DNA from: an uncultured Desulfurococcales archaeon
GTDB lineage: Archaea > Thermoproteota > Thermoprotei_A > Sulfolobales > CAZCAU01
Direction: 5' to 3'
Assembly: GCA_964496855.1 (NCBI GenBank)
Contig: CAZCAU010000002.1
Coordinates: 4,122-68,121 of the forward strand
DNA: 64,000 nucleotides
Shown here: positions 44,996 through 64,000 of the stretch, piece after piece
Layout: every line of letters starts with the position of its first letter
Numbering within the stretch: position 1 is the stretch's first letter
Translations under genes and position numbers: made by a program
The notes under the pieces: generated by a model
What the model was told of the DNA's origin: nothing
The model's database searches: none
The model's input: the letters and a program-made list of their open reading frames with translations, nothing else

Positions 44996-45199
44996 CTAGC
45001 TTTTGTGTTTTCTCTCCTCGTTCTCTATTGTAAGTATTCTGGCAATAGACTTCTTTATACTCCTTATTTTCCCAGGATTCTCCAAGGTACCTATCTCTGC
45101 TTGTAGTCTAAGTCTTAGAAGTTCTTCTCGAAGTTCCATGAGCTTCTTACGCCTCTCTTCAGGACTCATTTTTCTTATGTCCTCGGGTTTTAGACTCAT
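44996..45199 (-). CDS. rpl29: 50S ribosomal protein uL29 (mirror copy)
   Basis: Twin of 18432..18635; identical translation. Confidence 0.88.
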   Translation of the reverse strand: MSLKPEDIRKMSPEERRKKLMELREELLRLRLQAEIGTLENPGKIRSIKKSIARILTIENEERKHKS

Positions 45200-45807: not shown

Positions 45808-45812
45808 TGCCG

Positions 45813-46283: not shown

Positions 46284-46302
46284 TGTGTTCTGCACCTCTC
46301 TA

Positions 46303-46743: not shown

Positions 46744-46857
46744 GCTATCCCCACCATTTTCTTCAGCATTTACTACCGGTTACCCCTACCAGCATCTTCT
46801 TTGTTACACGGATTAACTATATGGGAATATTAAATTTTCCCCAAGACTCGTAATTCT

Positions 46858-48942: not shown

Positions 48943-48946
48943 ATAG

Positions 48947-49891
48947 TTATACCCGAAACCTTTTCCTCAATACCTCCTCGACAATGTCTTTATCATCGTA
49001 CTTCTTGCCTAGAACGCTTCTACCAGCATCAAGAAGATCTATATCATCTACTCTCTTCCTACCCCTAATCATCGCTACTCTCTGAGCTAATTGTGCCCAT
49101 GACACTGCTTCACTAGGCCCAGGCTTATACTCCATGCCTTTATCTCTAAGCTCGTTTAATGTATCAACTATCAAGTGCATCTTTTCCGCTGGTAAAGGAG
49201 GTAGGCCTGATAAGAGCCTTATTTTTATTATCTCTATCTCTGTATCCTCGTCCGGGTAGTTAAACTCTATCCTAGTGACGCGTCTGAGAAAAGCATCGCT
49301 GAGCTCTCCTTGTGCTATGTCCTCAGGATTCGATGTTAGTATAACCTGGAACCCATCTCCCTTAGCATAAATAGTTTTCTTAAGCTCTGGGATTATTATC
49401 CTACGCTTATCTATGATGTCGAGTAGTAGGTTCTGGAACTCCTCGCTAGATCTCCTTATCTCGTCTATTAGTACACCAGCATCTATGATGACTGCCGCTA
49501 GTAATGTTCTTGGTATGAAGCTTTTCTCGTTAAAACCATACCTTATAGCCATTAATGGGTGGAAATCACCTATCACTCTGTATTCATCATAGTTCTCGCT
49601 ACAAGGCAGGATAAAAGCTGACTTACCAGACCATAGCTCTAGTAGTGCTTGACCTATCTCGGTCTTACCCGTACCTGGAGGGCCTTCAAATAAGACTGGT
49701 TTGTTATTATAGAAGGATGCGAACACTAGTGTTACCAGCTCTTTGTCTACAACTAGTTTATACTCCTGTCTCAAGATCTTAACAGCTAGCTCAGGGTCTC
49801 TAATAGGCTCCCGGGTGACTAGTGAGCCTCCATAGATCTCCCATACTTTCTTTGAAAGTTCCTCGAACTCTTCTTGAGCCTTATCGTACAT
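48947..49891 (-). CDS. MoxR-family AAA+ ATPase (mirror copy)
   Basis: Twin of 13740..14684; identical 314-aa translation. Confidence 0.75.
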   Translation of the reverse strand: MYDKAQEEFEELSKKVWEIYGGSLVTREPIRDPELAVKILRQEYKLVVDKELVTLVFASFYNNKPVLFEGPPGTGKTEIGQALLELWSGKSAFILPCSENYDEYRVIGDFHPLMAIRYGFNEKSFIPRTLLAAVIIDAGVLIDEIRRSSEEFQNLLLDIIDKRRIIIPELKKTIYAKGDGFQVILTSNPEDIAQGELSDAFLRRVTRIEFNYPDEDTEIEIIKIRLLSGLPPLPAEKMHLIVDTLNELRDKGMEYKPGPSEAVSWAQLAQRVAMIRGRKRVDDIDLLDAGRSVLGKKYDDKDIVEEVLRKRFRV

Positions 49892-49984
49892 TACGTTATT
49901 TCCTCTTATAGCAGCCTCTAGTACAACATGATATATCCTTAGGGACTAATTTATTTTAGCATTTGAGTATTGTTGAGGAAGAGG

Positions 49985-50581
49985 CTAGGGAAAGCCTACA
50001 ATCATGCAGTACGTTAGATAAGGACATCTTTGACATTTTCCTGGACTATATTTGGCTGCCGGGAATATACCATATGCTTTCACGTAATATATTTCTTCTA
50101 ATATTTTATGAAAACGCGTAACATCATTAGATGTTATCTTCACAAAGAATTCTCTATCACGGTACCGTAGCAGAGTCCTTATCTCTTTCTGTACCACACC
50201 TGATAACAACATGTAATATGCAACTAGTTGCATCTTATCAGAATGCCAGGGTCTCCCATTGGCTGGGGCTTTACCACTTTTTATCTCTACTATTTGAAGA
50301 TGATCTTTACCAGGAAGAATCGCGTCTGGACGCCCTACTAATAGTATGTTCCCTAGTGGTCTTTCAATACTTTTTTCTACAAGTGCTCCTCTCCTCCTGA
50401 TACGTATTAGGCTCTCCAAGATAAAGTGATAAAGTCTACCAAGAGCAAGTCTCAGTTTCTCGGAGAAGCTCTTTTCTCTACTCATGTACGTCTCATAGAA
50501 GAAGAGCCGGGGACAATAAGTATAAGTTCTCACTTCACTAGGTGTTATCTTTAAGTATTCACTGTTAACATTATTCCTCAT
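49985..50581 (-). CDS. Cas4-like PD-(D/E)xK nuclease (mirror copy)
   Basis: Twin of 13050..13646; identical 198-aa translation. Confidence 0.65.
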   Translation of the reverse strand: MRNNVNSEYLKITPSEVRTYTYCPRLFFYETYMSREKSFSEKLRLALGRLYHFILESLIRIRRRGALVEKSIERPLGNILLVGRPDAILPGKDHLQIVEIKSGKAPANGRPWHSDKMQLVAYYMLLSGVVQKEIRTLLRYRDREFFVKITSNDVTRFHKILEEIYYVKAYGIFPAAKYSPGKCQRCPYLTYCMIVGFP

Positions 50582-50699
50582 AATATGATACCTATTGGGC
50601 TTGGTCTGCTAGTTATTTTCAGCAGACTGTTCTTTAACACGTATTACTCTATAAAATTAAATATTGTTAATTAAGCTACGTGTTTAGATGAAGGTAATT

Positions 50700-53600
50700 T
50701 TATTTCACAGGCTTAATTATTATTACTACCTCACGTCCATCGATGTCCCAAGACTCTCTTAACTCATCCTCCCCTACTTGTTCGCTTGCTACAGCACCTG
50801 TCCTTATCTCTATACTTCTCGTCTCTTCTTTAAGGTAGTCATTGTACAATTTCACAGCTTCAAGCATGTCAGCATCCTTAGTGTATATAGATGTGACTAT
50901 GTATGTGTCTACTGGTAGCTGTAGTTTTTTTCTCATAAACTGTATTCTTCTAACAAGATCTCTCGCAAGACCCTCAAGTATCTCTTGTTTTGATAACCTA
51001 GTGTCTATAGCAATGAATCCCCAGTCGGTTTCTTTCACGGACAACCAGTCGGGGTAATCACTTACTAGCCGCACATGCTCTTTGCGTAGGACGAGTTTTT
51101 TGCCATTCTCGAGAGTTATCTCGTAGTATCCTTTAGTAGCTATGCTTCCAGCTATCTCTTTGTTCTTCTCTTCTATTGTTTTAATTACAAAGGGCGTGTT
51201 AGACTTGAATTCTTTACCAATGATGCTAAGTACAGGTTCTACTCTTATCTTTCTCATAGCTTTAAAGTCTTCAACACTTAATATCTCAAGATTCTTGGCG
51301 TTTGCTTGTTCCAGTAGTATCTTCTTGAAGAAGTTTACGGCGTCGAGTACTTTTTGATTAGTAGACGAGATAATTAGTCTTGCCACGGGTTGTCTTAGCT
51401 TTATACCAGCTTTCATTCTCGCGACAAGAGTATTCTCGATAACTTCTCTCACTATACTCATTTTTTCTTCAAGATTGTCATCGATGTACTCTTCGCGATA
51501 ACTAGGCCAGTTCTCTAGATGTATACTTGTTTTAGCTTTGTCTTCGAACTCTCTTATGAATACCTGGTATAGGTACTCGCTTATGAACGGCGTTATAGGA
51601 GATATTAGTAGAAGCCATGTTCTGAGAGCATTGTATAGTACTGTATATGATGCTAGTTTTTGCGGAGATAACTCTTCTTCCCAAGCTTTCCTACGTACTA
51701 ATCGTATATACCAGTGGCTTACATCATCCACTATGAAGTCTACTAAGTGTCTGACCGCCTCATGTATCCTGTACTCTTCAAAAGCCTTGGTAACTTCTTT
51801 TACAAGCTTGTTAGTCTTGTTCAGGAGCCACTTATCTTCAGGTCCCAAAGCATTAGACTCTAGTAGTTGTTCTACCGATGACTTGGAAGGCGAGAACTTG
51901 TCTAGTTTCATATAGGTGTACGCGAATCTGAATACGTTCCATGCTATAGATAGGGTTTTCTTAGCTAACTCTATTCGTTTCCAGGAGAACCTTATATCTT
52001 CCCAGGTAGTATTCCCTAGTACCCAGAGCCTAAATATGTCACGTCCATACCTATCTATAACTTCATCAGGCTCCACGTAGTTGCCCAGGCTCTTGTGCAT
52101 CTCCCTACCATGCTCGTCAAGCATGAAGCCGTGGACAAGGACAGTAGTGTAAGGGGCCTCGCCAAAACCTATTACTCCGCTTCTTAACAAACTAAAGAAC
52201 CATCCTCTAGTCTGATCATGGCCTTCAACTATGAAGTCTACTGGTTTAAGATCGTCCCATAGTTTGCTCTTAGGATACCCGAGACTCGCGTAGAAGGAGA
52301 CGCCGCTATCAAACCATACGTCTAGCACATCCGGTATTCTATACATTTCTCCCCCGCATCGTGGGCATTTAAGCACTACCTCGTCTATGTCTGGCCTGTG
52401 CGGATCCTCGGGTATGTATGAAGCACCGAATTTTCTCAGCTCTTCTTTACTGCCTATAACAATGGTTTGTCCACAGTTATTGCACCGCCATATAGGTAGC
52501 GGTATCCCCCAGTACCTCTGCCTGGATATAACCCAGTCCCTAACGTCTCTAATCCAGTTCATAAACCTCTCTTTAGCCCAATCTGGTATCCATTTGACTT
52601 TATCAGCTTCTTCAATAAGCTTCTTATACAGCCTTGAGACTCGTATGAACCATTGTTTTGTAGCTCTCAATATAAGTGGTGTTTTGCATCTCCAGCAAAC
52701 TGGGTAACGATGCTCTATGGTAGATGATGCCAGAAGAGCATTCTTCTCTTTGAGATCTCTTATTATTACATTATTAGCATCTTTGAAGTACAATCCTCTA
52801 TACTTGCCAGCCTCAGCCACGAATCTTCCTTGATCGTCTATGAGTGATACTATTGGGAAACCAAGCTTCTTAGCTATCTCAAAATCTATTGTTCCGTGAC
52901 CAGGTGCCGCATGCACCAAGCCTGTACCTTCATAGGGAGATACCGCCTCAGGCGCTGCAACTATCTTGTGGTACTCATCAAGCTTTTTCTGAGCGTCAAC
53001 TAAATCTCTGAGTGGATGAGCATATTTCTTTCCCACTAGTTCTTTGCCCTTGAACTTCTTTTTTATACTATAATGTGTTATGCCAGCCTCTTTTTCTAAT
53101 ACCTCTTTTACCCTGTTTTCTAGAAGGACCAGTACTATCCTCTTATCATTCACAACAGCCTCTACTTCTGCGTAGTCTAGGTCCGGGTGCACCATTACCA
53201 TGGTATTAGCGGGAAGCGTCCATGGTGTGGTAGTCCAGATAACAATGTACTTCTCATTCTCTCCTATAAGTGGGAAAAGCACATATATTGATGGGTCACG
53301 CATAATCCTATACTCTGATACTTCATAGTCAGCTAGTGTAGTCTCGCATCTCGGACACCAGTGCAGTACACTCACGTCTTCTTCTAGAAGACCCTTCTCA
53401 TACGCTCTTTTTATCAGCCACCAGCCCGACTCTATGTACTCCGGATCTAACGTGAGATACGGATTATTCCAATCCATCTCCACGCCTAGATCTTTAAACT
53501 TCTCTTTCATACCCTCCATATTACTTAGTGCGAGCTCTTTGCATTTCTCGACAAACTCCTTTATACCTATCTTCTCGATGATTTCACGCTTATTCTTTAT

Positions 53601-53918
53601 ACCAAGTTGTTTTTCCATCTGTACCTCTATAGGTAATCCATGACAATCGAAACCCGGCTTATCCCATACGTTGTAGCCTTGCATTCTCTTGTATCTCAGT
53701 ACTGAGTCCTTGATAACCTTATTCCAAGCAGTACCTATGTGTATACTTGGTGCTGAGACGTATGGTGGGCCGTCTAAGAAATAGAATTTCTTCTTAGCAC
53801 TTTTTATAGAATCCTCAATTAATTTGCGTAGACCTATGTTATCCCAGTACCTGAATATAGCTTCTTCAACATCATGAGGTACATAGTGTTCTTTGAAGAT
53901 AAGTGAACGTTTATCCAT
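50700..53918 (-). CDS. ileS: Isoleucyl-tRNA synthetase (mirror copy)
   Basis: Twin of 9713..12931; identical 1072-aa translation. Confidence 0.93.
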   Translation of the reverse strand: MDKRSLIFKEHYVPHDVEEAIFRYWDNIGLRKLIEDSIKSAKKKFYFLDGPPYVSAPSIHIGTAWNKVIKDSVLRYKRMQGYNVWDKPGFDCHGLPIEVQMEKQLGIKNKREIIEKIGIKEFVEKCKELALSNMEGMKEKFKDLGVEMDWNNPYLTLDPEYIESGWWLIKRAYEKGLLEEDVSVLHWCPRCETTLADYEVSEYRIMRDPSIYVLFPLIGENEKYIVIWTTTPWTLPANTMVMVHPDLDYAEVEAVVNDKRIVLVLLENRVKEVLEKEAGITHYSIKKKFKGKELVGKKYAHPLRDLVDAQKKLDEYHKIVAAPEAVSPYEGTGLVHAAPGHGTIDFEIAKKLGFPIVSLIDDQGRFVAEAGKYRGLYFKDANNVIIRDLKEKNALLASSTIEHRYPVCWRCKTPLILRATKQWFIRVSRLYKKLIEEADKVKWIPDWAKERFMNWIRDVRDWVISRQRYWGIPLPIWRCNNCGQTIVIGSKEELRKFGASYIPEDPHRPDIDEVVLKCPRCGGEMYRIPDVLDVWFDSGVSFYASLGYPKSKLWDDLKPVDFIVEGHDQTRGWFFSLLRSGVIGFGEAPYTTVLVHGFMLDEHGREMHKSLGNYVEPDEVIDRYGRDIFRLWVLGNTTWEDIRFSWKRIELAKKTLSIAWNVFRFAYTYMKLDKFSPSKSSVEQLLESNALGPEDKWLLNKTNKLVKEVTKAFEEYRIHEAVRHLVDFIVDDVSHWYIRLVRRKAWEEELSPQKLASYTVLYNALRTWLLLISPITPFISEYLYQVFIREFEDKAKTSIHLENWPSYREEYIDDNLEEKMSIVREVIENTLVARMKAGIKLRQPVARLIISSTNQKVLDAVNFFKKILLEQANAKNLEILSVEDFKAMRKIRVEPVLSIIGKEFKSNTPFVIKTIEEKNKEIAGSIATKGYYEITLENGKKLVLRKEHVRLVSDYPDWLSVKETDWGFIAIDTRLSKQEILEGLARDLVRRIQFMRKKLQLPVDTYIVTSIYTKDADMLEAVKLYNDYLKEETRSIEIRTGAVASEQVGEDELRESWDIDGREVVIIIKPVK

Positions 53919-53932
53919 GGCTATTCATCTCT

Positions 53933-54211
53933 TTACTCTATCTTTATCTCATCAATTCTAAGACCAGATACTTCTTCACTATACTTAGAAAGAAGATTGA
54001 AGAGAATACTTTTATCAATATGAGTTTTGCCTCGCGAGGGAATTATTTCAATATATCTAAATTCTGGGAAAATAGACTTATGAATGATAATATTCACGTC
54101 AAGAGTGTTATCGAGTTCTTTAAGGATTTTCTTAAATAACTCTTCATCGTATAACGTGAAATACACCCTGTATTTAGTCTCCGTGTTCTTTCTGCTCATA
54201 ACGTCTAGCAC
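53933..54211 (-). CDS. Hypothetical small protein (mirror copy)
   Basis: Twin of 9420..9698; identical 92-aa translation. Confidence 0.35.
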   Translation of the reverse strand: MLDVMSRKNTETKYRVYFTLYDEELFKKILKELDNTLDVNIIIHKSIFPEFRYIEIIPSRGKTHIDKSILFNLLSKYSEEVSGLRIDEIKIE

Positions 54212-54673
54212 CAGAATATATCAGCTGTCACTACGAAGAAGTCTTAAGTAACCCTTATTAAAATATCTATACCTGACTATATGGATGAAGAAGGGTGCAA
54301 ACGCTGACAAGTAGCTGTTTTGTGATGAGTAGAGAAGCTTGAATAACACCAAAATCATTATCCCTCAGCAACTAGTTATCATCACCGTTTTCTGTCTCAG
54401 TACTCGGCAAATTCTTCACTGGGCCAGAAAGCTGCTTACTATCTCTACGCAACCATTAGTATATTATTATCTCGGCATGGTAAAACTATTTTGGCTTGAT
54501 TAGCAACTTAGTATACCCGGTGAAGACGTAGTGGGTGGCAGACAGAGAACAACAATATTCATGGGTATAGGGAAAGAGTCTAAAGAAGAAGAGGAAAAAA
54601 CTAGCAAGAAAGGTAAGAAGAAAAAGTAGAGGAGCTTTTCGACCCTCCTCTACTCCATGTTCTAGGTGAAGAT

Positions 54674-55546
54674 ATGAGTTTTTATTCTATCGCAATAGCT
54701 TTTCCTGGAAGCATAGTCGAGGTTGAGCCAGGCCCTCTCAGGAAGACTCTAAAACTAGGACTAATAGCGAGGAGCGCTGTAATTTTTGGCGTAGACGAGC
54801 TAATTGTATACGCTGATAGGTATACACGTAAAGATTCTCTTGAGCTTGTTGCCGACGTACTCGGATACGCTGTTGTACCACCATACTTAAAGAAAATGGT
54901 GTACGGGAAAAAAGATACTCTAAGCAGTGTTGGTGCATTGTATCCACTACAAATACCAACTCATACTGTAACCAGCGAATTAGAGGAGGGAGAATGCAGA
55001 GAGGCCTTAGTTTTTAGGAAGAAGAATAAGTTTTACGCGTATGTTGGTTTAGAGAAGCCGATAGAGCTGATGCATGAACCTAATATTGATAAAAAAGTTA
55101 GAGAAGGATTGCATTTAGTAAAGATAGTGAGAACTAGGGAGAGAGTTCTGGGAGAGATAGTAAAAGATCCTAGCGTTTGTAACAATATTTATCGAGGCTA
55201 TAGAGTTAAGGTTTATCCGGATATAGTATCTCTAATAAGTGACTATGAGAAGAACTATGTGATTTTAGCTACTAGTCGAAAAGGTGTATATGTGAGAGAC
55301 ATCATAGAGGAGCTTAAAGAGGCAGTTAATCGTAAAAAGAAGCTTTTGCTGCTATTCGGCGGACCCTTTGAGGGATTATACGAGATAGCTTCATATCATA
55401 ATCTTAATTTGGATAATAAAGCAGACTATGTGGTTAATGTAGTGTATCATCAATTTACAAAAACCATTAGGACCGAAGAAGCTATTCTAATAACACTAGC
55501 TATCCTAGACTATGCACTGAGTATAACAAGTGTTAAGGCAGGATAG
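54674..55546 (+). CDS. Putative SPOUT-superfamily RNA methyltransferase (mirror copy)
   Basis: Twin of 8085..8957; identical 290-aa translation. Confidence 0.55.
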   Translation: MSFYSIAIAFPGSIVEVEPGPLRKTLKLGLIARSAVIFGVDELIVYADRYTRKDSLELVADVLGYAVVPPYLKKMVYGKKDTLSSVGALYPLQIPTHTVTSELEEGECREALVFRKKNKFYAYVGLEKPIELMHEPNIDKKVREGLHLVKIVRTRERVLGEIVKDPSVCNNIYRGYRVKVYPDIVSLISDYEKNYVILATSRKGVYVRDIIEELKEAVNRKKKLLLLFGGPFEGLYEIASYHNLNLDNKADYVVNVVYHQFTKTIRTEEAILITLAILDYALSITSVKAG

Positions 55547-55578
55547 AGAATAGTCCGAGTAGAAGAAATTAGTATGCT

Positions 55579-55848
55579 TTACACTATACCTAGTCTTGTA
55601 GCGATCTCCGACGCATTATAGCCTTCTGCTAGCTTTATGTATGCTTTTTTCTCGCCACGAGGAGTTATGAGTGTACGTACTTTTTCCACCTTGACCTTAA
55701 AATACTGTTCAACAGCTTCTTTAATCTGTTTCTTTGTAGCCCTTCTATCAACTATGAATGTTAGTGTGTTTTCCCTCTCTATCATTAGTATGGCTTTTTC
55801 GGTGTGTAATGGTCTTAGAAGTATTTTGAAAGGATCAACTCCTGTCAA
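55579..55848 (-). CDS. rpl23: 50S ribosomal protein uL23 (mirror copy)
   Basis: Twin of 7783..8052; identical translation. Confidence 0.89.
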
Positions 55849-56672
55849 GGCGACGCTCCCTCGCTAAACATTTTTGTAAGCATTTCAAGAGCATTCTCGG
55901 TAATTACGGTTAGTCTGCCAGGTACGCCGCCGGGTGCTAGAAGTAGTATGTTGAGTGTCTTAGGAGTCATTATATCTACTCCCGGTAAGTTCCTAACAGC
56001 CAGTGCAAGATTAGATGATGCGTCACTTAGTATGAATAGTATGCTTTTAGGCTCCTTGTAACGTCTCCCCCGCATTTTACCTTTCCCTGCCCTTATACGG
56101 GTTCCCTTCTTGGACCTCTCAACATCCTCCCATAATCCTATCTTTTTGAGGAGCTCGCGAGCATTAGTAGTGTATAGTATGTCATCCTCAACGCCGTTAC
56201 TCAGTATAACTGGTAGGTGCTCTACCGAGAACCTATGACCACGGGCTCGAACCATTTCTGGTATAGATGTAGAAGCAAGAGCACTTAGAAGAGCTATTCT
56301 CTTTTCTTTCTTGTTTATCTCTTCTTTAGTACGCTTCTCCACTCGCGGCGGGTGTGCAGCCATGCCCCCCACAGCAGAGTTTATAAACGCTGCTCTGCCT
56401 ATACCCGGTATTCTAGGTACTCTAGCTATTCCTAATCCTACCCCAAAGCTTCGTGCAGTAGTCCGCTTACCTGCATGGGGGTCTCTTCCTTGAGGCTGTA
56501 TTCTCGATGTAAAGGCTGCGAGAAACGCTCTCCTTATAAGATCCTTTCTTATCGGGAATCCGAAGAACCATGGCAGTTTCATCTTCTTAACTATCTCTCC
56601 ATGTGCATCGTACACTGGGACTTCAGGAGGCTCCTTGCAATATAGTTGCAGGTAAGTATATAAGACAGGCAT
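55845..56672 (-). CDS. rpl4: 50S ribosomal protein uL4 (mirror copy)
   Basis: Twin of 6959..7786; identical translation. Confidence 0.91.
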
Positions 56673-56687
56673 TCTTCATACACCTCA

Positions 56688-57707
56688 TTATTGTTTACTT
56701 GTTAAACTCAGATACACTATTTCCGGAGCACTAGTGGGTCTCCACTCTGGTGGTCTAATAGGGTGTCTTAATACTAGGGGTCTCTTAGGTGGACCCATTA
56801 CAGAGCCTAGAACGCCTATAAAGTGTGATCTTACTATGCCGTAATGGGGGAAGCCTCCAGAAGGTGTGATCGTATAGCCATCACTCCCCATTAATATTAT
56901 TCTCTTGTTATACTCTGTTCTTCTATGATAGCCCAGCTGGCCTGGCTGAGGAGCCTCGCTTACGGTTCCTATGCCTGGGCTTCTAGCTCCTATTTTTCTA
57001 CTTCCTTTCCTATGCTTATGCCATCTGGGCAGCTCTTTTACTCCAAAACGCTTTATAACACTTCCAAACCCTTTGCCTTTAGTAACGCCTATAACATCAA
57101 TGAACTGGCCTGGTCTGAATACCTGGTCTATGGTAACCTCCTTACCTATGATTCCTAGAGCATAATTAAGCCTGTCTTCTATTGAGCTACCGCCAATTTT
57201 TACTTCTAACAAGTCCGGCTTCTTTTTTTCTAACCCGCCTGCTTTCTTCGGTTGCGAAGCAATGATTACCCTTATGTCAGCTATCTTGTCAAGATTCTCT
57301 TTTATCCTATCTATCCTTTTATCAAAGTCTCCTGCCGAGAACGTGCTTATTGCCCTCTCAATCTCGAGTTCTCTAGGCGGGTCAATCCACGCCTCTGTGA
57401 ACGTGAGTAACCCGTATCCGTACTTGTATCTGTATGCTCTGATAGCTAGTGGTATTATAGGTGGAGTCTCAATTACGGTTATAGGTGCAAATATCTCTCT
57501 TCCAGCTGTGAGAGAATTTTCTCTATCATCTATTATGAGAGCGTGAGTCATCCCAGCTTTGTAACCTATGAAAGCTAGTAGAAGAGGGCCTTGACTAGGG
57601 TCTATTTCGGGCCAGCTTTTAACCCTGGGTAGTATATCTGATGCTCTCTTCCTAGGTCTTACACCCAGGCTTCCGCGTCGTGGTGCGTGTTTTTTCCTAG
57701 CACCCAT
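56688..57707 (-). CDS. rpl3: 50S ribosomal protein uL3 (mirror copy)
   Basis: Twin of 5924..6943; identical translation. Confidence 0.91.
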   Translation of the reverse strand: MGARKKHAPRRGSLGVRPRKRASDILPRVKSWPEIDPSQGPLLLAFIGYKAGMTHALIIDDRENSLTAGREIFAPITVIETPPIIPLAIRAYRYKYGYGLLTFTEAWIDPPRELEIERAISTFSAGDFDKRIDRIKENLDKIADIRVIIASQPKKAGGLEKKKPDLLEVKIGGSSIEDRLNYALGIIGKEVTIDQVFRPGQFIDVIGVTKGKGFGSVIKRFGVKELPRWHKHRKGSRKIGARSPGIGTVSEAPQPGQLGYHRRTEYNKRIILMGSDGYTITPSGGFPHYGIVRSHFIGVLGSVMGPPKRPLVLRHPIRPPEWRPTSAPEIVYLSLTSKQ

Positions 57708-57886
57708 GTGCTTACACCACTTTCTCTAGAGACACCTGTATATCATTACTCTAACGCGTTATCTCTGTCTAGTGCAGGGATTAATTAATTTAGCCCCCTT
57801 AAATAAGCATTATCTATAGAAGGGTGATGAAAGGCGGGCTTATAAGATGCTGCACTTACACTCATGATGAATGCGGTCGTAGCTGA

Positions 57887-58603
57887 CTAGCGCTTTCTAC
57901 GCCCTGTTCTCCTAGCTGCTATATGTCCTACTTTTCTGCCAGGTGGGGTCTCTCTAGCAACTGTTGTCGGGAACGACTCTGATTGATGACTGCCACCACC
58001 ATGGGGGTGAGAGACTGCGTTCATCGCTACACCACGTACTCTAGGCCATTTTCTTGCCTTCTTAGACCACTTGTGATATGCTGCTCCCGCCTTGAGTAAT
58101 GGTTTTTCTATTCTTCCGCCACCTGCTGGTACGCCTATAGTTGCTCTGCACCTATTGTCTATCTCTTTCTTCTTACCACTGGGCAACTGAACTATGCTCT
58201 TATCGCCAGCTCTTCCTATCAACATTGCATAAGAGCCGGGCTGTCTCGCGAGTTTTCCACCGTCACCCGGCCTTAGCTCTATGTTAAATATCTGTGTACC
58301 CTCAGGTATGCTTCCTAGGGGTAGTATGTTGCCATTCTTGATAGAAGCTTCAGCGCCAATTTCTACTACCTGGCCAACATACATGCCCTCTGCCGACAGT
58401 ATCTTAAATTCTATACCATTATCTAACTGTATAACTGCTAAAGGCATATACCTTCCCGAGTCGTGAACTAAAGCTTTCACTATACCCTTATGTGTGCCCT
58501 CAAGATAGGGTGGATACTTGGCAGGACCTTTCCTACCCTTAGTAGGTGATCTAAATGTCGGAGAGCCTCTGCCCATTCTCTGTACTAATATCCGCTTACC
58601 CAA
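57887..58603 (-). CDS. rpl2: 50S ribosomal protein uL2 (mirror copy)
   Basis: Twin of 5028..5744; identical translation. Confidence 0.91.
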   Translation of the reverse strand: MGKRILVQRMGRGSPTFRSPTKGRKGPAKYPPYLEGTHKGIVKALVHDSGRYMPLAVIQLDNGIEFKILSAEGMYVGQVVEIGAEASIKNGNILPLGSIPEGTQIFNIELRPGDGGKLARQPGSYAMLIGRAGDKSIVQLPSGKKKEIDNRCRATIGVPAGGGRIEKPLLKAGAAYHKWSKKARKWPRVRGVAMNAVSHPHGGGSHQSESFPTTVARETPPGRKVGHIAARRTGRRKR

Positions 58604-58706
58604 CCCTGCTACACCTGTATTCTATAGTGAATGATTACTAGGTAATTCTGCCTACTGTTAGTATCACTAAGGACTTAATATACCTTTTTACCTGCCAAGA
58701 GGCGTT

Positions 58707-60281
58707 TCACGAAAGAGTTGTTATAGGAATTATTCTCAAGGGCACAGGAGCCTGTCTACCAGGGATTCTTAACAAGAATTCGCCTACGCTCATAGTAGAA
58801 AGTTTTTCTAGGTATTTATCGCCTAATCCTAGTAATTCTTTCACAGCCTCTAGATACTCTATATTAGAGGACCCGAAAATACCGTAGGAGTGCATGTTAA
58901 CCGCTACTCCTAAGGGAATGTCCTCTGGGGACTGAGTTGCTAGCACAAGGTTTATTCCTAAACTACGTCCTTCTCTAACCATTCTCTTAAAATAATAGCT
59001 CTTAGATTCTAAAACTCTCCAGCCCTCATCAATTATTAGTAGGAGTCTTTTACCCCCGAGGATCTCTGGTGCTTCTTCGTATATGTGTTTTAGTATAAGG
59101 TCTAGCACATTGTTCTTATAGGTGTCACTGAGTTCTGAGATGTCGTACACAACAAGATTCCTTGTTGAAGCATTATACCTTTCTATGCAATCATTGATTA
59201 TGGCTTCTACAAGACTCTGGTTTTTCCCCTCCTCACTTATAGAGTCTGTAATATTGCATCTTAGAGCCAGGGAATCGTCTCCTAACTTGCTACTATACTT
59301 TTTTATCATCTCTACAAAATCTCCCTTAGGATCAATACATACACTTAACCGGAAGGTGTTAAAGAATTCTCTCTGCTCAATGCTTCTTAGCAGGAGTGTT
59401 GCCAGATATGTTGTCTTGCCGGAACCCGTAGGTCCTATCACTAAGTGGTGTTTCTCAGTCATTTTAGCTAATGGTATATAGACAGGGTATCCCGTATCTA
59501 AATCGTAGCCTAAGTAGACGTTGAGATCATCGATAGGGTTGATTCTGGCATATTGTAGTGGATACGGTATTAGAGAAACTGGTTTAACCATAATGGAGTA
59601 TCTATCAGGACTATTGGAACATACGCCTAACGCATCTAATTCTGCTACGGTGAGTATTCTTGTCTCTATGTTCTTATTTACATCAAAATACGCTTTTACA
59701 AGATTTAGCTCTGCGAGTAGTCTTTCTGCATCGCTGTTGTTATTAGCTTTGCGTCTTAATATTAGTACATATGATATAAACGGTACTCTTTTCTCGTACA
59801 TTATCTTTGTATAGATGTCGTGGAGAACTCTATACTCCTGCTTTGCCCTAATCCCAGGCAGGTCCTTGTCGTACTCATATAATGAGAGTTTTTGCAATTC
59901 GTTACCAATCTTCTTTATGAAGTCCCTAGCAGTAACTTTAGTCATAAATAATCGGAGCTCGACTTCTGCATCAATTTCGCTAAGCATCTTATAAAATCCT
60001 GTAAGCTTGGCTTGTAGGTCATGTATATTTGTATCAAGTATGCTTTCGTATAGCGGTACTATTAGTAGTCCTGCCGCATAAACTTTAGAGCTCCCTTCGT
60101 TATTGCACAAGATATATCTCTGACCGCTATGTTTTTTCACAAATACTGTCACTTTATCCAGACTTTTCTTGTGACGCGTATTTACTGTGAGTATTTTCGA
60201 GATGTTCGAATTAACAGTGTTTCTGTAAATCCATGCTAACCCTGCACCACTAAGTATAGCTATTAATAATATGTCGAGCAC
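58707..60281 (-). CDS. Membrane-anchored VirB4/CedB-like P-loop ATPase (mirror copy)
   Basis: Twin of 3350..4924; identical 524-aa translation. Confidence 0.7.
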   Translation of the reverse strand: MLDILLIAILSGAGLAWIYRNTVNSNISKILTVNTRHKKSLDKVTVFVKKHSGQRYILCNNEGSSKVYAAGLLIVPLYESILDTNIHDLQAKLTGFYKMLSEIDAEVELRLFMTKVTARDFIKKIGNELQKLSLYEYDKDLPGIRAKQEYRVLHDIYTKIMYEKRVPFISYVLILRRKANNNSDAERLLAELNLVKAYFDVNKNIETRILTVAELDALGVCSNSPDRYSIMVKPVSLIPYPLQYARINPIDDLNVYLGYDLDTGYPVYIPLAKMTEKHHLVIGPTGSGKTTYLATLLLRSIEQREFFNTFRLSVCIDPKGDFVEMIKKYSSKLGDDSLALRCNITDSISEEGKNQSLVEAIINDCIERYNASTRNLVVYDISELSDTYKNNVLDLILKHIYEEAPEILGGKRLLLIIDEGWRVLESKSYYFKRMVREGRSLGINLVLATQSPEDIPLGVAVNMHSYGIFGSSNIEYLEAVKELLGLGDKYLEKLSTMSVGEFLLRIPGRQAPVPLRIIPITTLS

Positions 60282-60287
60282 TTTTCC

Positions 60288-61718
60288 TCACCAGTATACT
60301 CTGAGTGGTATAGGTATTCTCTCTCTAGCACCCGCTATAACGTATGCAAGTGATGTAGTAATGCTTATCAATAATATATAGTAAGAGATGGGGAGTATAA
60401 TCCATGATACTAGGAAGTTAGCTAATATGATGTCTAGTCTACGGAGATCCAGTGCTCCTCCGAGATATTTCTCCATGTAGCCTTTACTAGGCACTTGAAC
60501 GTCTAGTTCTCTAGGATACTTGCTAATGCTTACATGCAAGTAATAACTCTCGTTACTTTTTAACACGAACTTTATTACTCTGAATTCCTGGCCTCCCCAA
60601 GTGCTAGTAGTGTTAAGAACAGGCGTGACTACAGTCTTGTTCATATACATGTGTACTTTTACCAAAGAATTTTCTGGATAAGCGATTAGGAGCGGGCAAC
60701 TGATAGTAGGGTGTATTGACGCATTAAAGATGCTTGGAGCCTGGGTATTCACGTGTGTTTCCGCACACTTATTCTCTAGTACAATAACCGTATATGGTTT
60801 AGGACTCCACACAACATCTACTGCTGTGAAAGTTAGTTTGACAATACTAGTGGTGTATTGCGCTCTTCCTCCCAGAGACGATAACGAGGGTCTTATGAGT
60901 GTTTGAAGCTTTATACCATCTACTATAATGTATGAATCCACTTCTCTATTAAGAGGGATACCTCCTTCAGGGGGTAGAGCTTTAACAGTGCCGTCTAGAT
61001 CTATAATGTATGATGCTAGTTCTCTGCCCTCCTTATCTGTAAAAACTAGCTGACCACCTCTTAGTGGTTCTCCATACCTATTGACGACCCGCCCCTCAAA
61101 GAATACGATGTGCTCTTCTTCTTGAAGTGAATATGGTATTGTATCAATATTAGAGGGAGAAAAAGTGCTTACGAACAATGGCAGTGACGGCATGCCCACA
61201 AAGAATACAAGTGCGAAAGCTATAAAGAAGGCACCAGCCCATCGTGCAAGTCTAAATGGTATGGCAAATAACAATATTCCAAGTAATAGTATTTTCAAAT
61301 GGTATAGTTGTATTATTTTTGATAAAAGATAGAATGCTTGAAAAGCAACTATTATGTATGATAACAAATGTGATATTGGGGATACAAATACATCTATAAA
61401 TGACCGTACACCTACGCTACTTGAGGCAACACTTACTGTTGCTACCAATAGTTTCAGATTTATTAGAAAGGCTAGCCTCTCTAGAAGCCAAGATGTCAGA
61501 GAAGCCCAGTCATGACCCAGCATGCTATAGAGATAGTACATTATGGATACAATAGTGTGATACGATAATACGAGTATGAGCGAGTAAATACCGTCTCTTA
61601 GAAGTATTGGAGCCCATTTCTTTACACCATAAATCGGGATAGGTAATGAGTACATGAATACGCCTAGATAATACGTTAGTAGGGAAAAAGCGTATGCCAT
61701 TAATAAGACGTCGTCCAA
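60288..61718 (-). CDS. Polytopic membrane protein, candidate CedA/VirB6-like (mirror copy)
   Basis: Twin of 1913..3343; identical 476-aa translation. Confidence 0.65.
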   Translation of the reverse strand: MDDVLLMAYAFSLLTYYLGVFMYSLPIPIYGVKKWAPILLRDGIYSLILVLSYHTIVSIMYYLYSMLGHDWASLTSWLLERLAFLINLKLLVATVSVASSSVGVRSFIDVFVSPISHLLSYIIVAFQAFYLLSKIIQLYHLKILLLGILLFAIPFRLARWAGAFFIAFALVFFVGMPSLPLFVSTFSPSNIDTIPYSLQEEEHIVFFEGRVVNRYGEPLRGGQLVFTDKEGRELASYIIDLDGTVKALPPEGGIPLNREVDSYIIVDGIKLQTLIRPSLSSLGGRAQYTTSIVKLTFTAVDVVWSPKPYTVIVLENKCAETHVNTQAPSIFNASIHPTISCPLLIAYPENSLVKVHMYMNKTVVTPVLNTTSTWGGQEFRVIKFVLKSNESYYLHVSISKYPRELDVQVPSKGYMEKYLGGALDLRRLDIILANFLVSWIILPISYYILLISITTSLAYVIAGARERIPIPLRVYW

Positions 61719-61745
61719 GGTACCGCACCTAGTGTGCTAACCGGG

Positions 61746-62021
61746 CTATGATGGTGGAGGAGGGGCCTCAAAAGCGAATTGTGCGGCAAGATAAGAGACT
61801 ATGGCGAATATCGTTGAACCCATGGCTAACCAGAATGCTGCCCATACAGAGTCTTCTATTAAGTCCTGCCCTGTTCTCTTAAGTCTGAGAAATGGTACTG
61901 GTGATCCTCTCAGAGCCCAGCCTAGGCTCCATGTTAATAAGAATAGGCTCCAAGATAGGGACACTATTTTCATTGTCAAATCGTGAACAAAATTCACTAT
62001 ATTCATCTTCTTATCCCCCAC
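61746..62021 (-). CDS. Small two-TM membrane protein (mirror copy)
   Basis: Twin of 1610..1885; identical 91-aa translation. Confidence 0.5.
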   Translation of the reverse strand: MGDKKMNIVNFVHDLTMKIVSLSWSLFLLTWSLGWALRGSPVPFLRLKRTGQDLIEDSVWAAFWLAMGSTIFAIVSYLAAQFAFEAPPPPS

Positions 62022-62058
62022 TATCCTATTATAGGGGTTTTAAACTGATCACCCCATG

Positions 62059-64000
62059 CTAAGACTTCAAGAATAATAGCACAACGTCATGGACGCCGTT
62101 GCCTAGACATAGTCTTAAAACCCTGGAACTACTATAGACTAGTATATCGTAATTATTTATCATAGCGTTATCTACACTTACATTTGCTGGTTCTTTATCT
62201 ATCGGGATGTATAGGCATGAGGGGCCTATAACACTTTTAACTACTAGTCTGTAGCCAAACCAATTCTCTTCTCTAATAACATCATAGTATTCTACACTAT
62301 TATTACTGAACGCCACCGCGTTTGGGATTATTATCTCTAATGAATCGGGCACAGAGTAGCCTATTGAGATGTTGACCTCTCCAGAGGCATCAACAATCTC
62401 AGCAATGTCTACATCTGAAGAATTCATCTTTACTACAGCACCGGGAGGAAGGCCTTCAACTACGAGTTTATTAGATAAGTACACTTCGTAAAAACAAGCA
62501 TTACTATTTTGTATAACTTGTACACTCGTATTAAAACCGTTTAAACTTATCATGTCACTAGGATCAGTGCTTCGAGCAAACATTATGCCTCCATAGTATG
62601 GTCTCGTGATATACTCGGCTCCTTCTTCTAATAGCATAAAAGTATGTGTAGAAAGATCTGTTTTGATCCTCACTATTTGTGGGAATAATATAGTCATAGG
62701 CGTAGAGCCGCTGGGTATATTGATTACATAGTAGATTCTATTGTTACCAAAATTTAGTAGACTACCCTTACCAATATAGGAGAGAGTTGATGAAGAGTTA
62801 AACCAAGTTATTGAATTATTTATCTTTACACCTACTAGCTTTATAGGTAAAGAAGAGAGGTTCAGGTAGGCATTACCAGAAATAAATTCTTCTTTTAATA
62901 TATCTAGGTACACGGTATAAACAGGATAGTATGTTTCTATCTTGATGCTTTTTAGAATACTGTTGTAACTTGCGTATTGTAGAATCGTGCCACTAGTATC
63001 ATATGCCTCAGCTACTGCGGTCTTGTTTTCAAAATACTCTAATATGCGTATTCTCAGAGGACGGATATAACTAGATTCGTAGAATACTACGTAGCCACTG
63101 TTGGTCTCAAAGCTTATTTTGAAAGAAGTTGCGCGTACACTTGTGTATGTTTTAAGAGTTATAGTTATATTGATAATTGACACCTCGTCATCAAGTATTG
63201 GTAAGCTTAGAATCTTATACCTATACTTATCCGCATATGCAAGCATTGTTGTAAGGCTCTCAGAGTATTTGAATACGTACTGTTTTTTCGTTTCCGAAGA
63301 GTATCTTTCTATACTTGCTTTTTCAATGTTAAGCGTATAAGGGTATCCTTTTTCTATAAAACCAGTATATTGTGTAGGATATAATGCATACATAACTAGT
63401 CGCGCGTATTGGTTTCTGCTAAATAACCAGTTAAGCACTCTTTTAACTACGTTCTCGTCTCTAATCATGTATCCGTTGCCTTCATTATTGAGAGTTATTC
63501 TTAGACCGCCGTGGAAGAATCCTTTGAGGATAAGTGTTGTATTCTTCAGAGGCTTTGCAGCTAGTGTAGCGTCTTGATAAAATCGTAGGGTATCTATGGG
63601 TATGATGCCAGAATCTTCTGTGATAAGAGCTATGGGTCTCAGATTGTTGCCTGGAATAATATTAGATATGCTCTTTAAATCTACTAACATGGTGTCCCCA
63701 GGCGGTAAGTATAGCTTGTTGTCTAGAGGTGCGATTATTGTAGCATTGCTAGTCTGATTCTCGTATATTATTGCACTAATAACTGCTGGTTTTGACGCTT
63801 GGTTGCCTATGTAGAGATGAGTCGAATTTATGGACGAGGCTAGGATAGGTAAGTGCATGGATTCTACTCCTTCTATAATATACCTAGATGCAAGCGTTAC
63901 TCTTGTTGCCTCATTGCTCATATACTCGGTAATCATGATAGAAGTTATGAGCAGGGCTGGTAGGATTATTGCTAATCCGATTATGCTACTAATAGCCTTG
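62059..64000 (-). CDS. Large N-glycosylation-sequon-rich surface protein with a class III (prepilin-like) signal peptide; 5' end just outside the window
   Basis: The track ORF (62059..63936, 625 aa) starts at an internal Met. The frame stays open to base 64000 and the extra 21 codons read KAISSIIGLAIILPALLITSI before MITEYMSNEATRV. That is K-A followed by a ~22-residue hydrophobic helix, as in PibD/FlaK-processed archaeal prepilins. Sequons include NQTSNAT and NTT. Confidence 0.65.
   Translation of the reverse strand, partial: KAISSIIGLAIILPALLITSIMITEYMSNEATRVTLASRYIIEGVESMHLPILASSINSTHLYIGNQASKPAVISAIIYENQTSNATIIAPLDNKLYLPPGDTMLVDLKSISNIIPGNNLRPIALITEDSGIIPIDTLRFYQDATLAAKPLKNTTLILKGFFHGGLRITLNNEGNGYMIRDENVVKRVLNWLFSRNQYARLVMYALYPTQYTGFIEKGYPYTLNIEKASIERYSSETKKQYVFKYSESLTTMLAYADKYRYKILSLPILDDEVSIINITITLKTYTSVRATSFKISFETNSGYVVFYESSYIRPLRIRILEYFENKTAVAEAYDTSGTILQYASYNSILKSIKIETYYPVYTVYLDILKEEFISGNAYLNLSSLPIKLVGVKINNSITWFNSSSTLSYIGKGSLLNFGNNRIYYVINIPSGSTPMTILFPQIVRIKTDLSTHTFMLLEEGAEYITRPYYGGIMFARSTDPSDMISLNGFNTSVQVIQNSNACFYEVYLSNKLVVEGLPPGAVVKMNSSDVDIAEIVDASGEVNISIGYSVPDSLEIIIPNAVAFSNNSVEYYDVIREENWFGYRLVVKSVIGPSCLYIPIDKEPANVSVDNAMINNYDILVYSSSRVLRLCLGNGVHDVVLLFLKS

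Follow-up and report, generated by a model that had tools for sequence, protein, structure and literature searches.

A probable Aeropyrum-type Ced operon with upstream surface-protein genes in a Desulfurococcales-like archaeon

The 64,000-nucleotide stretch of DNA analyzed here (the window) comes from an uncultured, thermophilic lineage of Desulfurococcales-like Thermoprotei and carries a gene set, cedA1-cedA-cedB, that is very probably orthologous to the chromosomal Ced operon of the Aeropyrum type. We regard the locus as a known system extended to another lineage, accompanied by accessory genes that are possibly new. The initial annotation had described a chromosomal Ced-type DNA-import module, as opposed to an integrated conjugative element, made up of four co-directional, tightly spaced genes, and both descriptions were borne out, the former by the protein families, the synteny and the lack of mobile genes. 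The four open reading frames, designated g1 to g4, all lie on the minus strand (Table 1), with 37, 27 and 6 nt between successive genes. When the products of g2, g3 and g4 were compared with family HMMs, the comparison that had been recommended at the outset, CedA1, CedA and CedB were the respective best families. The E-values obtained for proteins of the module ranged from 1e-28 to 1e-49, and the module is, therefore, not a product of chance.

Table 1. Features of the window and of the adjoining upstream region
Feature	Coordinates	Strand	Description
cedB-like ATPase (g4)	58707..60281	-	524 aa; NF041017 best family
cedA (g3)	60288..61718	-	476 aa; polytopic membrane (channel) subunit, predicted; NF041796 match
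cedA1 (g2)	61746..62021	-	predicted Ced pilin, VirB2-like two-helix hairpin; NCBIfam and PDB match
TATA-like TTTAAAA	62038..62044	-	between g1 and cedA1, 32-38 nt ahead of ATG 62006; direct reading
g1	62059..64000	-	646 codons, open to window edge; orphan surface protein
g0	outside window, upstream of g1		136 aa; pilin-like N-terminus
Mirror image of module	1..4924	+	exact reverse complement of 58707..63630; same four genes
Palindrome axis	31815..31816	.	no spacer

The pilin and the membrane subunit

As had been proposed from the letters of the sequence, g2 encodes two hydrophobic helices in the VirB2/TrbC/CedA1 topology. The protein scored 128 bits with the NCBIfam model NF041797 (CedA1), above the equivalog cutoff of 100, and matched PDB entry 8DFU, the Aeropyrum pernix CedA1 pilus (PMC11823120), with an E-value of 3.4e-28 over residues 7-79 (73 residues). 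The properties of CedA1, namely those of a VirB2-like two-helix pilin of about 80 aa with no signal peptide, are all found in g2, which is predicted to be the CedA1 pilin. The gene can be read as 91 aa from the GTG at 62021 or as 86 aa from the ATG at 62006; the ATG is the more likely start of cedA1 and agrees with the call in the NCBI record. In the Ced system of A. pernix and other Desulfurococcales (8DFU; Beltran et al. 2023, PMC9905601), CedA1 is highly similar and likewise has no cleavable signal, the genes cedA1-cedA-cedB are chromosomal, and the N-terminus of CedA is homologous to CedA1. The present locus differs in coming from a distinct lineage, in having an orphan pilin-signal pair, g0/g1, ahead of cedA1, and in the relocation of uL2 to a position directly after cedB.

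The product of g3 has a hydrophobic transmembrane (TM) core at about residues 1-190 and a last helix at about residues 427-464. Its best family was CedA (NF041796; E 6e-49, 166.9 bits), the match covering residues 3-210 and a C-terminal stretch; divergence and an inserted ectodomain keep the score under the equivalog cutoff of 330. The CedA and CedB equivalog models of NCBIfam are Sulfolobales-based (cutoffs 330 and 700), and since the scores obtained here are far under those cutoffs, the orthology of CedA and CedB rests on best-match status together with synteny. In the Ced literature CedA is a protein with 6-7 TM segments, and the resemblance of its N-terminus to CedA1 has been published (PMC9905601). 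The product of g3 agrees with this picture of a polytopic protein with a CedA1-like N-terminus, and the homology was reproduced here by HMM search and with a CedA profile, which matched the CedA1 pilin 8DFU at an E-value of 3e-5. A true Sulfolobaceae CedA (L035, 354 bits) is collinear with g3 in the alignment, and g3 is predicted to be CedA. Of the VirB6/CedA-like role suggested for it by the initial annotation, the CedA half stood; for the VirB6 half, hmmsearch with a 16-sequence CedA profile gave no VirB6 or TrwI chain at E <= 10. A Foldseek search with the low-confidence g3 model gave nothing significant. A VirB6 link has been published, by HHpred, for TedA (PMC9905601).

The ectodomain of g3, about 220-230 aa (residues 196-425), is beta-rich and carries 4 sequons. 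The alignment places it as an insertion ahead of the last helix, and the secondary structure of the AlphaFold model (pLDDT 51) agrees with this placement. The long external insert, which the initial annotation had not been able to place in the described systems, turned out to be the normal form of CedA outside Sulfolobaceae; Sulfolobaceae CedA, at 259-262 aa, has only about 20 residues where CedA here has an ectodomain of about 230 aa. A fast-evolving surface domain of about 220 aa in CedA outside Sulfolobaceae is not mentioned in the Ced literature that we compared. The g3 CedA is at most 32% identical to that of any GTDB representative found, and the ribosomal proteins are 54-73% identical.

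Surface-protein genes upstream of cedA1

Full-length g1 is 659 aa in a 99.3% identical strain (L001), the 13 N-terminal codons lying beyond the window edge. It begins there with MVIRMYTRLSTRHK|AISSIIGL; its signal motif, K-A|ISSIIGLAIIL (K-A|I-S-S at residues 10-14), is of class III (prepilin-like) and is followed by a hydrophobic helix. We scored the signal with a FlaFind-like pattern, [KR][GA]-hydrophobic plus one hydrophobic helix, the regular expression of which we take to be the FlaFind pattern, and by this measure g1 carries an archaeal class III signal. The N-terminal hydrophobic segment is the only one in the protein, and the remainder is beta-rich; the window copy has 14 N-X-S/T sequons, compared with 7.3 +/- 2.3 expected from shuffles. 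These observations support the earlier description of a sequon-rich surface protein with a class III signal. The view that g1 does not fit the described systems was also sustained. It is nearly an orphan, with no match in Pfam or NCBIfam and no pilin family at E <= 1; it showed no homology with adhesins, pilin families or Ced components, and only two other members of its family were detected among 1.84 billion protein representatives. The AlphaFold model was unusable (pLDDT 36.5). With its 659 aa, g1 exceeds structural pilins in length several-fold, and L001 has no genes for type IV pilus assembly within 10 kb. The N-terminus of the neighbouring g0, RRSIG-LSNIIAMAIL, is pilin-like and misses the strict class III pattern. 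By description, g1 may be likened to UpsX of the Ups operon (arCOG05986), which is large and beta-rich and is encoded beside DNA-exchange surface machinery; UpsX has several Ig folds, and its deletion lowers DNA exchange, the protein not being needed for the filament itself. The differences from UpsX are the class III signal motif of g1 and its location beside ced rather than ups genes.

In all three lineages where the g1 family is detectable (L001/L003, L011 and L051), g1 precedes cedA1 by 38-81 nt and is on the same strand. Three further lineages have unalignable genes of 643-678 aa with KG|L-type N-termini, positioned 32-59 nt upstream of cedA1, and most Ced loci lack g1 (Acidilobaceae, Ignisphaera and Staphylothermus MAGs). 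Identity to the nearest lineage is 70% for g1 and 67% for the CedA ectodomain versus 92-96% for CedA1 and the TM parts of CedA. In a comparison of two strains with 99.3% identity, a divergent tract (~1.9%) includes an S-layer-like gene, g0, g1, cedA1 and cedA. The pN/pS ratio for these two strains is 0.22-0.30; because it is below 1, diversifying selection is not demonstrated. Our best guess is that g1 is a candidate Ced accessory or cell-contact protein. Orphan pilin-signal proteins directly ahead of the pilin gene, as seen in some lineages, are not mentioned in the Ced literature compared.

An alternative hypothesis is that g0 and g1 form a variable envelope (S-layer) cassette inserted upstream of cedA1, and that the functional Ced system consists of cedA1-cedA-cedB only. 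We consider this a serious contender, with a chance somewhat short of even. Ahead of g0 and g1, L001 encodes a 1056-aa protein that has a coiled coil, a signal peptide and a C-terminal anchor, and the corresponding place before a g1-like gene is taken in L005/L017 and L045 by a tetrabrachion-like protein (1485 to >1611 aa); the location of a g1-like gene beside a giant S-layer-/tetrabrachion-like gene in two lineages makes membership in an envelope cassette possible. The entire cassette is missing from the close relatives L018-L020, in which the site is occupied only by a divergent gene of the PAPS-reductase family. The inclusion of the S-layer-like gene in the divergent strain tract points in the same direction, as does the TATA-like element ahead of cedA1; this element, which is followed in the spacer by a purine-rich GGGGGAT stretch, is possibly an internal promoter, and cedA1 thus seems to own a promoter. 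However, the divergent tract takes in cedA1 and cedA as well and stops exactly at the start of cedB, and every detectable g1 homologue lies no more than 81 nt from cedA1 on the same strand. Furthermore, the 643-aa gene of L028/L046 is flanked by a PEP-mutase gene on one side and cedA1 on the other, and no S-layer gene accompanies it.

A proposed mechanism and partner recognition

The mechanism that we propose for the Ced operon is borrowed from work on Sulfolobus and A. pernix, the system being known here from genes alone. CedA1 subunits would exit the membrane and, together with lipids, assemble to form a VirB2-like conjugative pilus. CedA, with its CedA1-like N-terminal hairpin, would serve as membrane channel or platform, and the membrane-anchored CedB, a hexameric ATPase, would drive assembly and/or DNA translocation, so that chromosomal DNA would be imported from a neighbouring cell for recombinational repair. 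The ectodomain of CedA, glycosylated and fast-evolving, would be exposed at the surface between the TM core and the last helix. The genes g0 and g1, directly upstream and probably co-transcribed with the ced genes, may encode lineage-specific accessory surface proteins that mature through cleavage by a class III signal peptidase and, jointly with the CedA ectodomain, mediate contact between cells or the recognition of partners. We propose this contact role from linkage and evolutionary pattern only.

In the Sulfolobales, cell contact is made by Ups type IV pili. The Ced system of that order is reportedly the subject of van Wolferen 2016. Its components (CedA, CedA1, CedA2 and CedB, with CedD and CedE; PMC11823120, PMC11868833) include a homologous pilin, channel and ATPase, and DNA import for repair is presumed to be common to both systems; cedB is unlinked from cedA in Sulfolobales and linked to it here, and CedA2 is absent here. 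CedD and CedE, which are required for import in Saccharolobus (PMC11868833), are absent from the window and from L001. One could envision that in Thermoprotei without Ups pili, partner recognition and mating-pair formation are built into the Ced locus, although we hold this idea to be rather doubtful. If it is true, then the CedA ectodomain, joined in some lineages by g1/g0-like surface proteins with class III signals, would supply the recognition parts of a hybrid, conjugation-derived machine that uses prepilin-peptidase-processed adhesins; the strain-variable block, as one unit, could set who exchanges DNA with whom; and loss of the ectodomain in Sulfolobaceae would coincide with the passing of recognition to Ups pili. 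The ectodomain and g0/g1 are concrete candidates for how Ups-less Ced cells might find or hold their partners.

A different scenario is that the pilus serves mainly for adhesion, aggregation or non-DNA transport in this lineage, DNA import being specific to Sulfolobales. Import has been demonstrated only in that order, the pilus structure alone is known for A. pernix (PMC9905601), and surface interactions are suggested by the large ectodomain and by the neighbours with pilin signals. We think that this scenario is improbable, however: the ATPase and the channel are conserved, many lineages have a gene for an Lhr-type DNA-repair helicase immediately ahead of cedA1, and genes for CedD-like ATPases are close to ced in L012 and L027. 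The UV motif A(N)TTTC (PMC6101591) is too degenerate to score at a single locus.

The ATPase, the chromosomal address and the palindromic window

The N-terminal hydrophobic helix of g4 (residues 1-20) is its membrane anchor, and a P-loop domain of the HerA/FtsK superfamily carries the motifs GPTGSGKTT (Walker A, residue 283), IIDEGW (Walker B, residue 416) and LVLATQSPEDI (residue 445). The best family was CedB (NF041017; E 3.8e-28, 98.5 bits, cutoff 700), and residues 46-330, a CedB-type N-domain, aligned to model positions 51-324. CedB was also the top family for the operon-linked homologues of g4 (17/17), with which Acidianus CedB groups, and g4 is predicted to be CedB-like. The initial annotation had called the protein VirB4/CedB-type. 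The CedB part agrees with the best family found, whereas the term VirB4-type is, as judged from these matches, true at the superfamily level only: g4 scored 35.8 bits with the VirB4 model TIGR00929 (cutoff 643), VirB4/TrbE matches were weak (E 1e-7 to 1e-9), and PDB profiles of the catalytic domain placed HerA-like ATPases (9e-20 to 7e-15) closer than the VirB4 C-terminal domain 4AG5 (3e-10).

Those PDB matches, together with the best Pfam matches (FtsK_SpoIIIE and DUF87/HerA), might suggest that g4 is a HerA/FtsK-type repair or segregation motor whose neighbouring membrane proteins are unrelated to DNA transfer, but this is scarcely credible, given that the CedB model leads by 57 bits, its alignment including the N-domain specific to CedB, that the HerA repair model NF040937 (HerA_Thermprot) gave only 14 bits (cutoff 800) and FtsK about 15, that no NurA, Mre11 or Rad50 genes are adjacent, that g4 is in fixed operon linkage with a bona fide CedA1 pilin and CedA, and that CedB has already been placed within the HerA clade (PMC11868833). 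By these family-model scores, a closer tie to HerA or FtsK than to VirB4/CedB, named at the outset as evidence against the Ced reading, was not what we found, and a HerA-NurA end-resection system was rejected on the same HerA score and neighbourhood.

The order cedA1, long cedA, cedB beside an RNA methyltransferase gene (PF02598) and uL3-uL4-uL23(-uL2) was found at more than 20 loci, in Desulfurococcaceae, Staphylothermus, Acidilobaceae, Caldisphaera and Pyrodictiaceae. The synteny check in related Thermoprotei therefore came out in favour of the Ced operon: with its cedA1-cedA(-cedB) linkage, the operon keeps one chromosomal, non-mobile address (the uL3 ribosomal operon, often with the Lhr helicase) across several orders, which argues for an old chromosomal system rather than a mobile element and supports an ancient domestication of conjugation machinery. 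A further possibility, that these genes form the transfer machinery of a conjugative plasmid or ICE integrated in the chromosome, and hence a DNA-exporting type IV secretion system (T4SS), is suggested by superfamily-level similarity to VirB4/TrbE/TraC and coupling proteins and by the thought that Ced derives from conjugation machinery (PMC9905601). We regard it as very improbable, and as largely refuted by the missing mobile genes and the conserved ribosomal address. As noted initially, integrase, relaxase and plasmid genes do not accompany the cluster, and none lies in the window or within 10 kb upstream in L001; neither replication or partition genes nor a relaxase with a coupling protein on a mobile element occur in the window or the L001 flanks, and no archaeal plasmid match was obtained. 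VirB4 models reached 36 bits against a cutoff of 643, and the tRNA-Ser gene close to the palindrome axis lies 27 kb away. Bacterial conjugative T4SS resemble the Ced operon in having a lipid-associated two-helix pilin, a polytopic membrane subunit and a membrane-associated hexameric ATPase. In contrast to them, the locus has no relaxase, coupling protein, VirB5 or outer components, and Ced, according to the literature, imports rather than exports. The Thermoproteales Ted system (TedA, TedB, TedC) is also a domesticated, conjugation-like chromosomal pilus system; TedC carries a Sec signal and resembles no Ced part in sequence, whereas the parts found here match Ced models directly.

The whole window is one sequence of about 32 kb fused to its own reverse complement: base p complements base 63631-p with 0 mismatches over 63,630/63,630 testable positions, and without a spacer. 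The two copies of the module that had been reported (left, 1..4924; right, 58707..64000) are, therefore, one sequence and its mirror image, and the left copy is neither independent of the right nor a second locus. No contig spanning the axis was found other than the window's own. The palindrome is probably an assembly fold-back, which cautions against reading the window as a duplication. On each side, tRNA-Ser(TGA) lies about 145 nt from the axis.

A single locus in a palindromic window

Each base p of the window pairs with base 63631-p: all 63,630 comparable positions are complementary, without a single mismatch or a spacer. The "left copy" that the initial annotation placed at 1..4924 is therefore the mirror image of the right-hand genes and not a second locus. 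The palindrome has its axis at 31815/31816 and spans the entire window (1..64000); the GC and AT skews reverse sign at the window centre, and tRNA-Ser(TGA) is mirrored ~145 nt from the axis on either side. This symmetry means that the window is one ~32 kb sequence (31816..64000) joined to its own reverse complement, and a spacer-less perfect palindrome of this size is most likely an assembly fold-back, from which we infer an artefact. In L001, a 437-kb NCBI contig of a closely related strain (99.3% identical, 102 differences in 15,294 bases), the locus is present once and extends beyond the outer edge of the window. Three look-ups for contigs across the axis returned none or only short contigs. 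Every gene of the window appears twice in mirror image, and any report of "duplicated" genes here should be discounted.

The four ORFs and the features first described for them were all borne out by the sequence check. The gaps g1-g2, g2-g3 and g3-g4 are 37, 27 and 6 nt, and uL2, uL3 and uL4 follow g4 on the same strand. The g1 product has a lone N-terminal hydrophobic helix preceded by K-A|I-S-S, and 14 sequons as compared with 7.3 +/- 2.3 expected. The g3 product has a hydrophobic core (residues ~4-187) and a last helix (~427-464), and that of g4 an N-terminal hydrophobic helix and ATPase motifs at residues 283, 416 and 445.

Coordinates of features in the window and in homologous loci
Feature	Sequence	Coordinates	Strand	Remarks
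g1, surface-protein gene	window	62059..64000	-	open at window edge, 646 codons
g2, cedA1	window	61746..62021	-	91 aa from GTG or 86 aa from ATG 62006
g3, cedA	window	60288..61718	-	476 aa
g4, putative cedB-like ATPase gene	window	58707..60281	-	524 aa
uL2, uL3, uL4 region	window	57887..58603 and 55845..57707	-	uL2 directly after cedB, ahead of uL3-uL4-uL23
Cas4-family gene	window	49985..50581
MoxR-type AAA_5 and VWA_CoxE pair	window	46858..49891	-	before uS19
MoxR-type AAA_5 and VWA_CoxE pair	L005	17691..20484		before uS19
Divergent tract	L001	4780..9930		window about 58780..64000 and beyond
Giant surface protein	L001	2496..5666		1056 aa, signal peptide, Ser-rich coiled coil, C-terminal TM anchor
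Giant surface protein	L005	2723..7180		1485 aa, weak Tetrabrachion Pfam match
Giant surface protein	L045	2..4837		more than 1611 aa
Ribbon-helix-helix, VWA and "ParA" genes	L001	1..2313	-	divergent, upstream
Second membrane ATPase	L012	1541..3361	-	few kb upstream of cedA1
Second membrane ATPase	L027	5735..7693	-	few kb upstream of cedA1
Lhr-type helicase	L029, L032, L033, L036-L043, L049	~6600-9650		directly upstream of cedA1
Lhr-type helicase	L012-L015, L020, L044, L005			farther upstream

Assignment of the CedA1, CedA and CedB-like proteins

The g2 product scored 128 bits against the NCBIfam CedA1 equivalog model (cutoff 100) and matched PDB 8DFU, the A. pernix CedA1 pilus (PMC11823120), with an E value of 3.4e-28 over 73 residues; it is CedA1. 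The g3 product matched the CedA model (E 6e-49), with residues 3-210 on model positions 6-215 of 259 plus a second stretch, and scored 109 bits, below its CedA score, against the paralogue CedE; it is assigned to CedA on these profile matches. For g4, the best family was CedB (98.5 bits, E 3.8e-28), in an alignment that takes in the CedB-specific N-domain, versus 41 bits for CedD, 36 for VirB4, 31 for Anti-phage HerA and 14 for HerA_Thermprot. The product is classed as CedB-like, and the refuting case set at the outset, a grouping with HerA/NurA-type repair ATPases or with FtsK, is not borne out by the model scores. Both g3 and g4 fall well under the equivalog cutoffs (330 for CedA, 700 for CedB) of models built from Sulfolobales sequences. 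A genuine Acidianus CedA scored 354 bits and every long CedA of other orders 113-167 bits, and CedB was the top family for all 17 of the 17 ATPases downstream of cedA in other lineages.

The description of the ATPase as VirB4-type holds at superfamily level only: the catalytic-domain profile of these ATPases matched the VirB4 C-domain at 3e-10 (FtsK, 1e-6), but HerA-like chains were nearest in the PDB (9e-20 to 7e-15) and the VirB4 model score of g4 was low. These results are in keeping with PMC11868833, where CedB is assigned to the HerA clade and its N-domain is described as VirB4-like. Likewise, the proposed similarity of the membrane proteins was recovered for CedA1 and CedA, but the CedA profile matched no VirB6 chain in the PDB, so that the CedA-VirB6 link stays literature-based. 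The profile's sole PDB match was the CedA1 pilin (E 3e-5, CedA residues 4-70), which recovers the relationship of CedA to CedA1 described by Beltran et al. A Foldseek search of the PDB with the g3 model, itself of too low a quality (pLDDT 51), gave nothing at E <= 0.001 (TM <= 0.13), and phage and plasmid searches with g4 gave nothing relevant.

The CedA ectodomain and the upstream cassette

The long CedA insert had been regarded as a part that could not be placed in the described systems. In a 16-sequence alignment, 213-237 residues separate the TM core from the final helix in non-Sulfolobaceae CedA, as compared with ~20 in Sulfolobaceae and 38 in one MAG. As the ectodomain is found in every non-Sulfolobaceae CedA aligned, the insert is the normal non-Sulfolobales form; the Ced literature surveyed describes CedA only as a 6-7 TM protein. 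AlphaFold placed beta strands at residues 204-398 of g3, with helices on either side (low confidence, pLDDT 51). Homologues of the ectodomain occur in some Desulfurococcales (phmmer 4e-9 to 2e-4), whereas in others it can no longer be recognised.

In L001, g1 encodes 659 aa, and g0, a 136-aa ORF whose N-terminus (MKMHRRSIGLSNIIAMAILVV) is pilin-like, overlaps its start. The g1 product matched nothing in Pfam or NCBIfam, and a word-indexed search of 5.8 billion proteins returned only itself and a 70% relative. Exhaustive HMMER searching of 1.84 billion representatives with the g1 profile gave two real family members in total, newly adding the relative P0018 (26% identity over 479 aa); a third, marginal match, a Bacteroidota T9SS protein, was uninformative. 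In all three lineages the family lies directly upstream of cedA1. The g1 model (pLDDT 36.5) was too poor to use, and phage and plasmid searches gave nothing relevant.

Genes of 643-678 aa lie 32-59 nt upstream of cedA1 in three other lineages: L005/L017 (N-terminus MFKG|LTNYPVF), L045 and L028/L046 (RRKG|LSNVIG). Each product has one N-terminal helix and 16-21 sequons, and two of the three genes are preceded by a small ORF with a hydrophobic N-terminus and a tetrabrachion-like giant protein. Neither BLASTP nor hhalign detected homology between the L005/L045 family and g1; L028/L046 gave a weak N-terminal signal (E 0.002-0.01, hhalign probability 4-9%) to which the hydrophobic helix contributed most, and the g1 HMM retrieved neither family. 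We treat all three as positional analogues of g1. A metagenome scan for the L005/L045 family returned the query alone.

Related lineages without the g0/g1 block carry a divergent PAPS-reductase-family gene in the same slot, which identifies the block as a variable cassette. Giant surface proteins, probably the S-layer proteins of these organisms, precede the g0/g1-like pairs in L001, L005 and L045. Farther upstream in L001 are genes for a protein of 252 aa that starts with a ribbon-helix-helix (CopG/ParD-like) domain, a 205-aa VWA protein and a "ParA". The last was considered as VirC1-like, as in Ted loci, and rejected: it is of the PF10609 Mrp/NBP35 type, also found by the ribosomal operon in Acidilobaceae, and is a housekeeping protein.

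Identity to L011, the nearest other lineage, is 92% for CedA1 and the CedA TM core and 96% for the last CedA helix, as compared with 76% for the CedB N-domain, 70% for g1 and 67% for the CedA ectodomain. The differences between the window and L001 bunch in one tract, which covers the S-layer-like gene, g0, g1, cedA1 and cedA at ~1.9% divergence and stops abruptly at the start of cedB; cedB and the downstream sequence differ by ~0.2-0.3%. SNP density is ~10-fold higher in the tract, between two strains that are 99.3% identical. Synonymous divergence is also raised (0.025-0.11 in the tract, 0-0.012 outside), which suggests either a recombination tract or an old, long-separated allele of the surface-exposed genes. 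At 0.22-0.30, pN/pS for g1 and the ectodomain lends no support to positive selection; the values of the window-L001 comparison span 0.09-0.30.

Homology and gene order were observed here, and the mechanism is carried over from genetic work on Sulfolobus and from the structure of the A. pernix pilus. By this analogy, CedA1 would form a lipid-containing, VirB2-like pilus, CedA a membrane channel or platform, and CedB would energise assembly or translocation, and the system would import chromosomal DNA for recombinational repair. In our interpretation, cell contact or partner choice may be mediated by exposed, glycosylated, fast-changing surfaces, namely those of the CedA ectodomain and of g0 and g1, both class-III-signal proteins. 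The main alternative is that g0 and g1 are an S-layer cassette that merely adjoins ced. The spacer between g1 and cedA1 contains a TATA-like TTTAAAA, so that cedA1 need not rely on g1 transcription; the UV-response motif A(N)TTTC was too degenerate to score at one locus. Two side points are worth a specialist's notice: the generality of the CedA ectodomain, and the link of orphan pilin-signal genes to cedA1.

Gene order and chromosomal setting

Synteny was compared in the neighbourhoods of distant homologues and in 38 loci from GTDB species representatives with a CedA alignment. The order cedA1, cedA (450-497 aa), cedB-like ATPase (495-628 aa) recurs in Desulfurococcaceae, Staphylothermus, other Desulfurococcales, Acidilobaceae, Caldisphaera and Pyrodictiaceae. 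A PF02598 RNA methyltransferase and uL3-uL4-uL23(-uL2) typically come next. Neither the window nor the 10 kb upstream in L001 contains integrase, relaxase or plasmid genes, and no archaeal plasmid match was found. Together with the conserved order across lineages, these results weigh heavily against an integrated conjugative element, in agreement with the chromosomal Ced system originally proposed. That interpretation is further supported by the CedA1 score above its cutoff and by CedA and CedB as best families, and the data support the view that the locus is a known Ced system in a new lineage. GTDB representatives offer CedA matches of no more than 31-32% identity, and the ribosomal proteins are 54-73% identical to those of these loci (highest in a Pyrodictiaceae MAG), which makes the source a Desulfurococcales-like lineage not yet described.

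An Lhr-type repair helicase is often found upstream of the ced block, a recurrent link of Ced genes with DNA repair. In Ignisphaera and several Desulfurococcales lineages this DEAD/DEAH helicase (~950-970 aa) directly precedes cedA1. The second membrane ATPases of L012 and L027 have CedD as best NCBIfam match (67 and 107 bits), so CedD-like genes can be loosely linked to ced outside Sulfolobales.

Unlike in the window, uL2 follows uL23 in most other loci; in Caldisphaera loci (L024, L030) it likewise lies immediately 3' of the ATPase gene. The MoxR/VWA_CoxE pair lies inside the ribosomal protein cluster, as in the Desulfurococcaceae locus L005, and is adjoined in the window's lineage by the Cas4-family gene and IleRS. 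Ignisphaera-type loci (L029, L031-L033, L037, L038, L041-L043, L049) carry cedA1 and a long cedA by the ribosomal genes, without an adjacent cedB-like ATPase gene; either the gene for the ATPase lies at another site, or the operon is split as in Sulfolobales. Contig JALWCE010000049.1 (L028) is binned in a bacterial "Nitratiruptor sp." MAG and carries cedA1/cedA of archaeal type with a pilin-signal gene of 643 aa; the contig is evidently archaeal and was put in the wrong bin.
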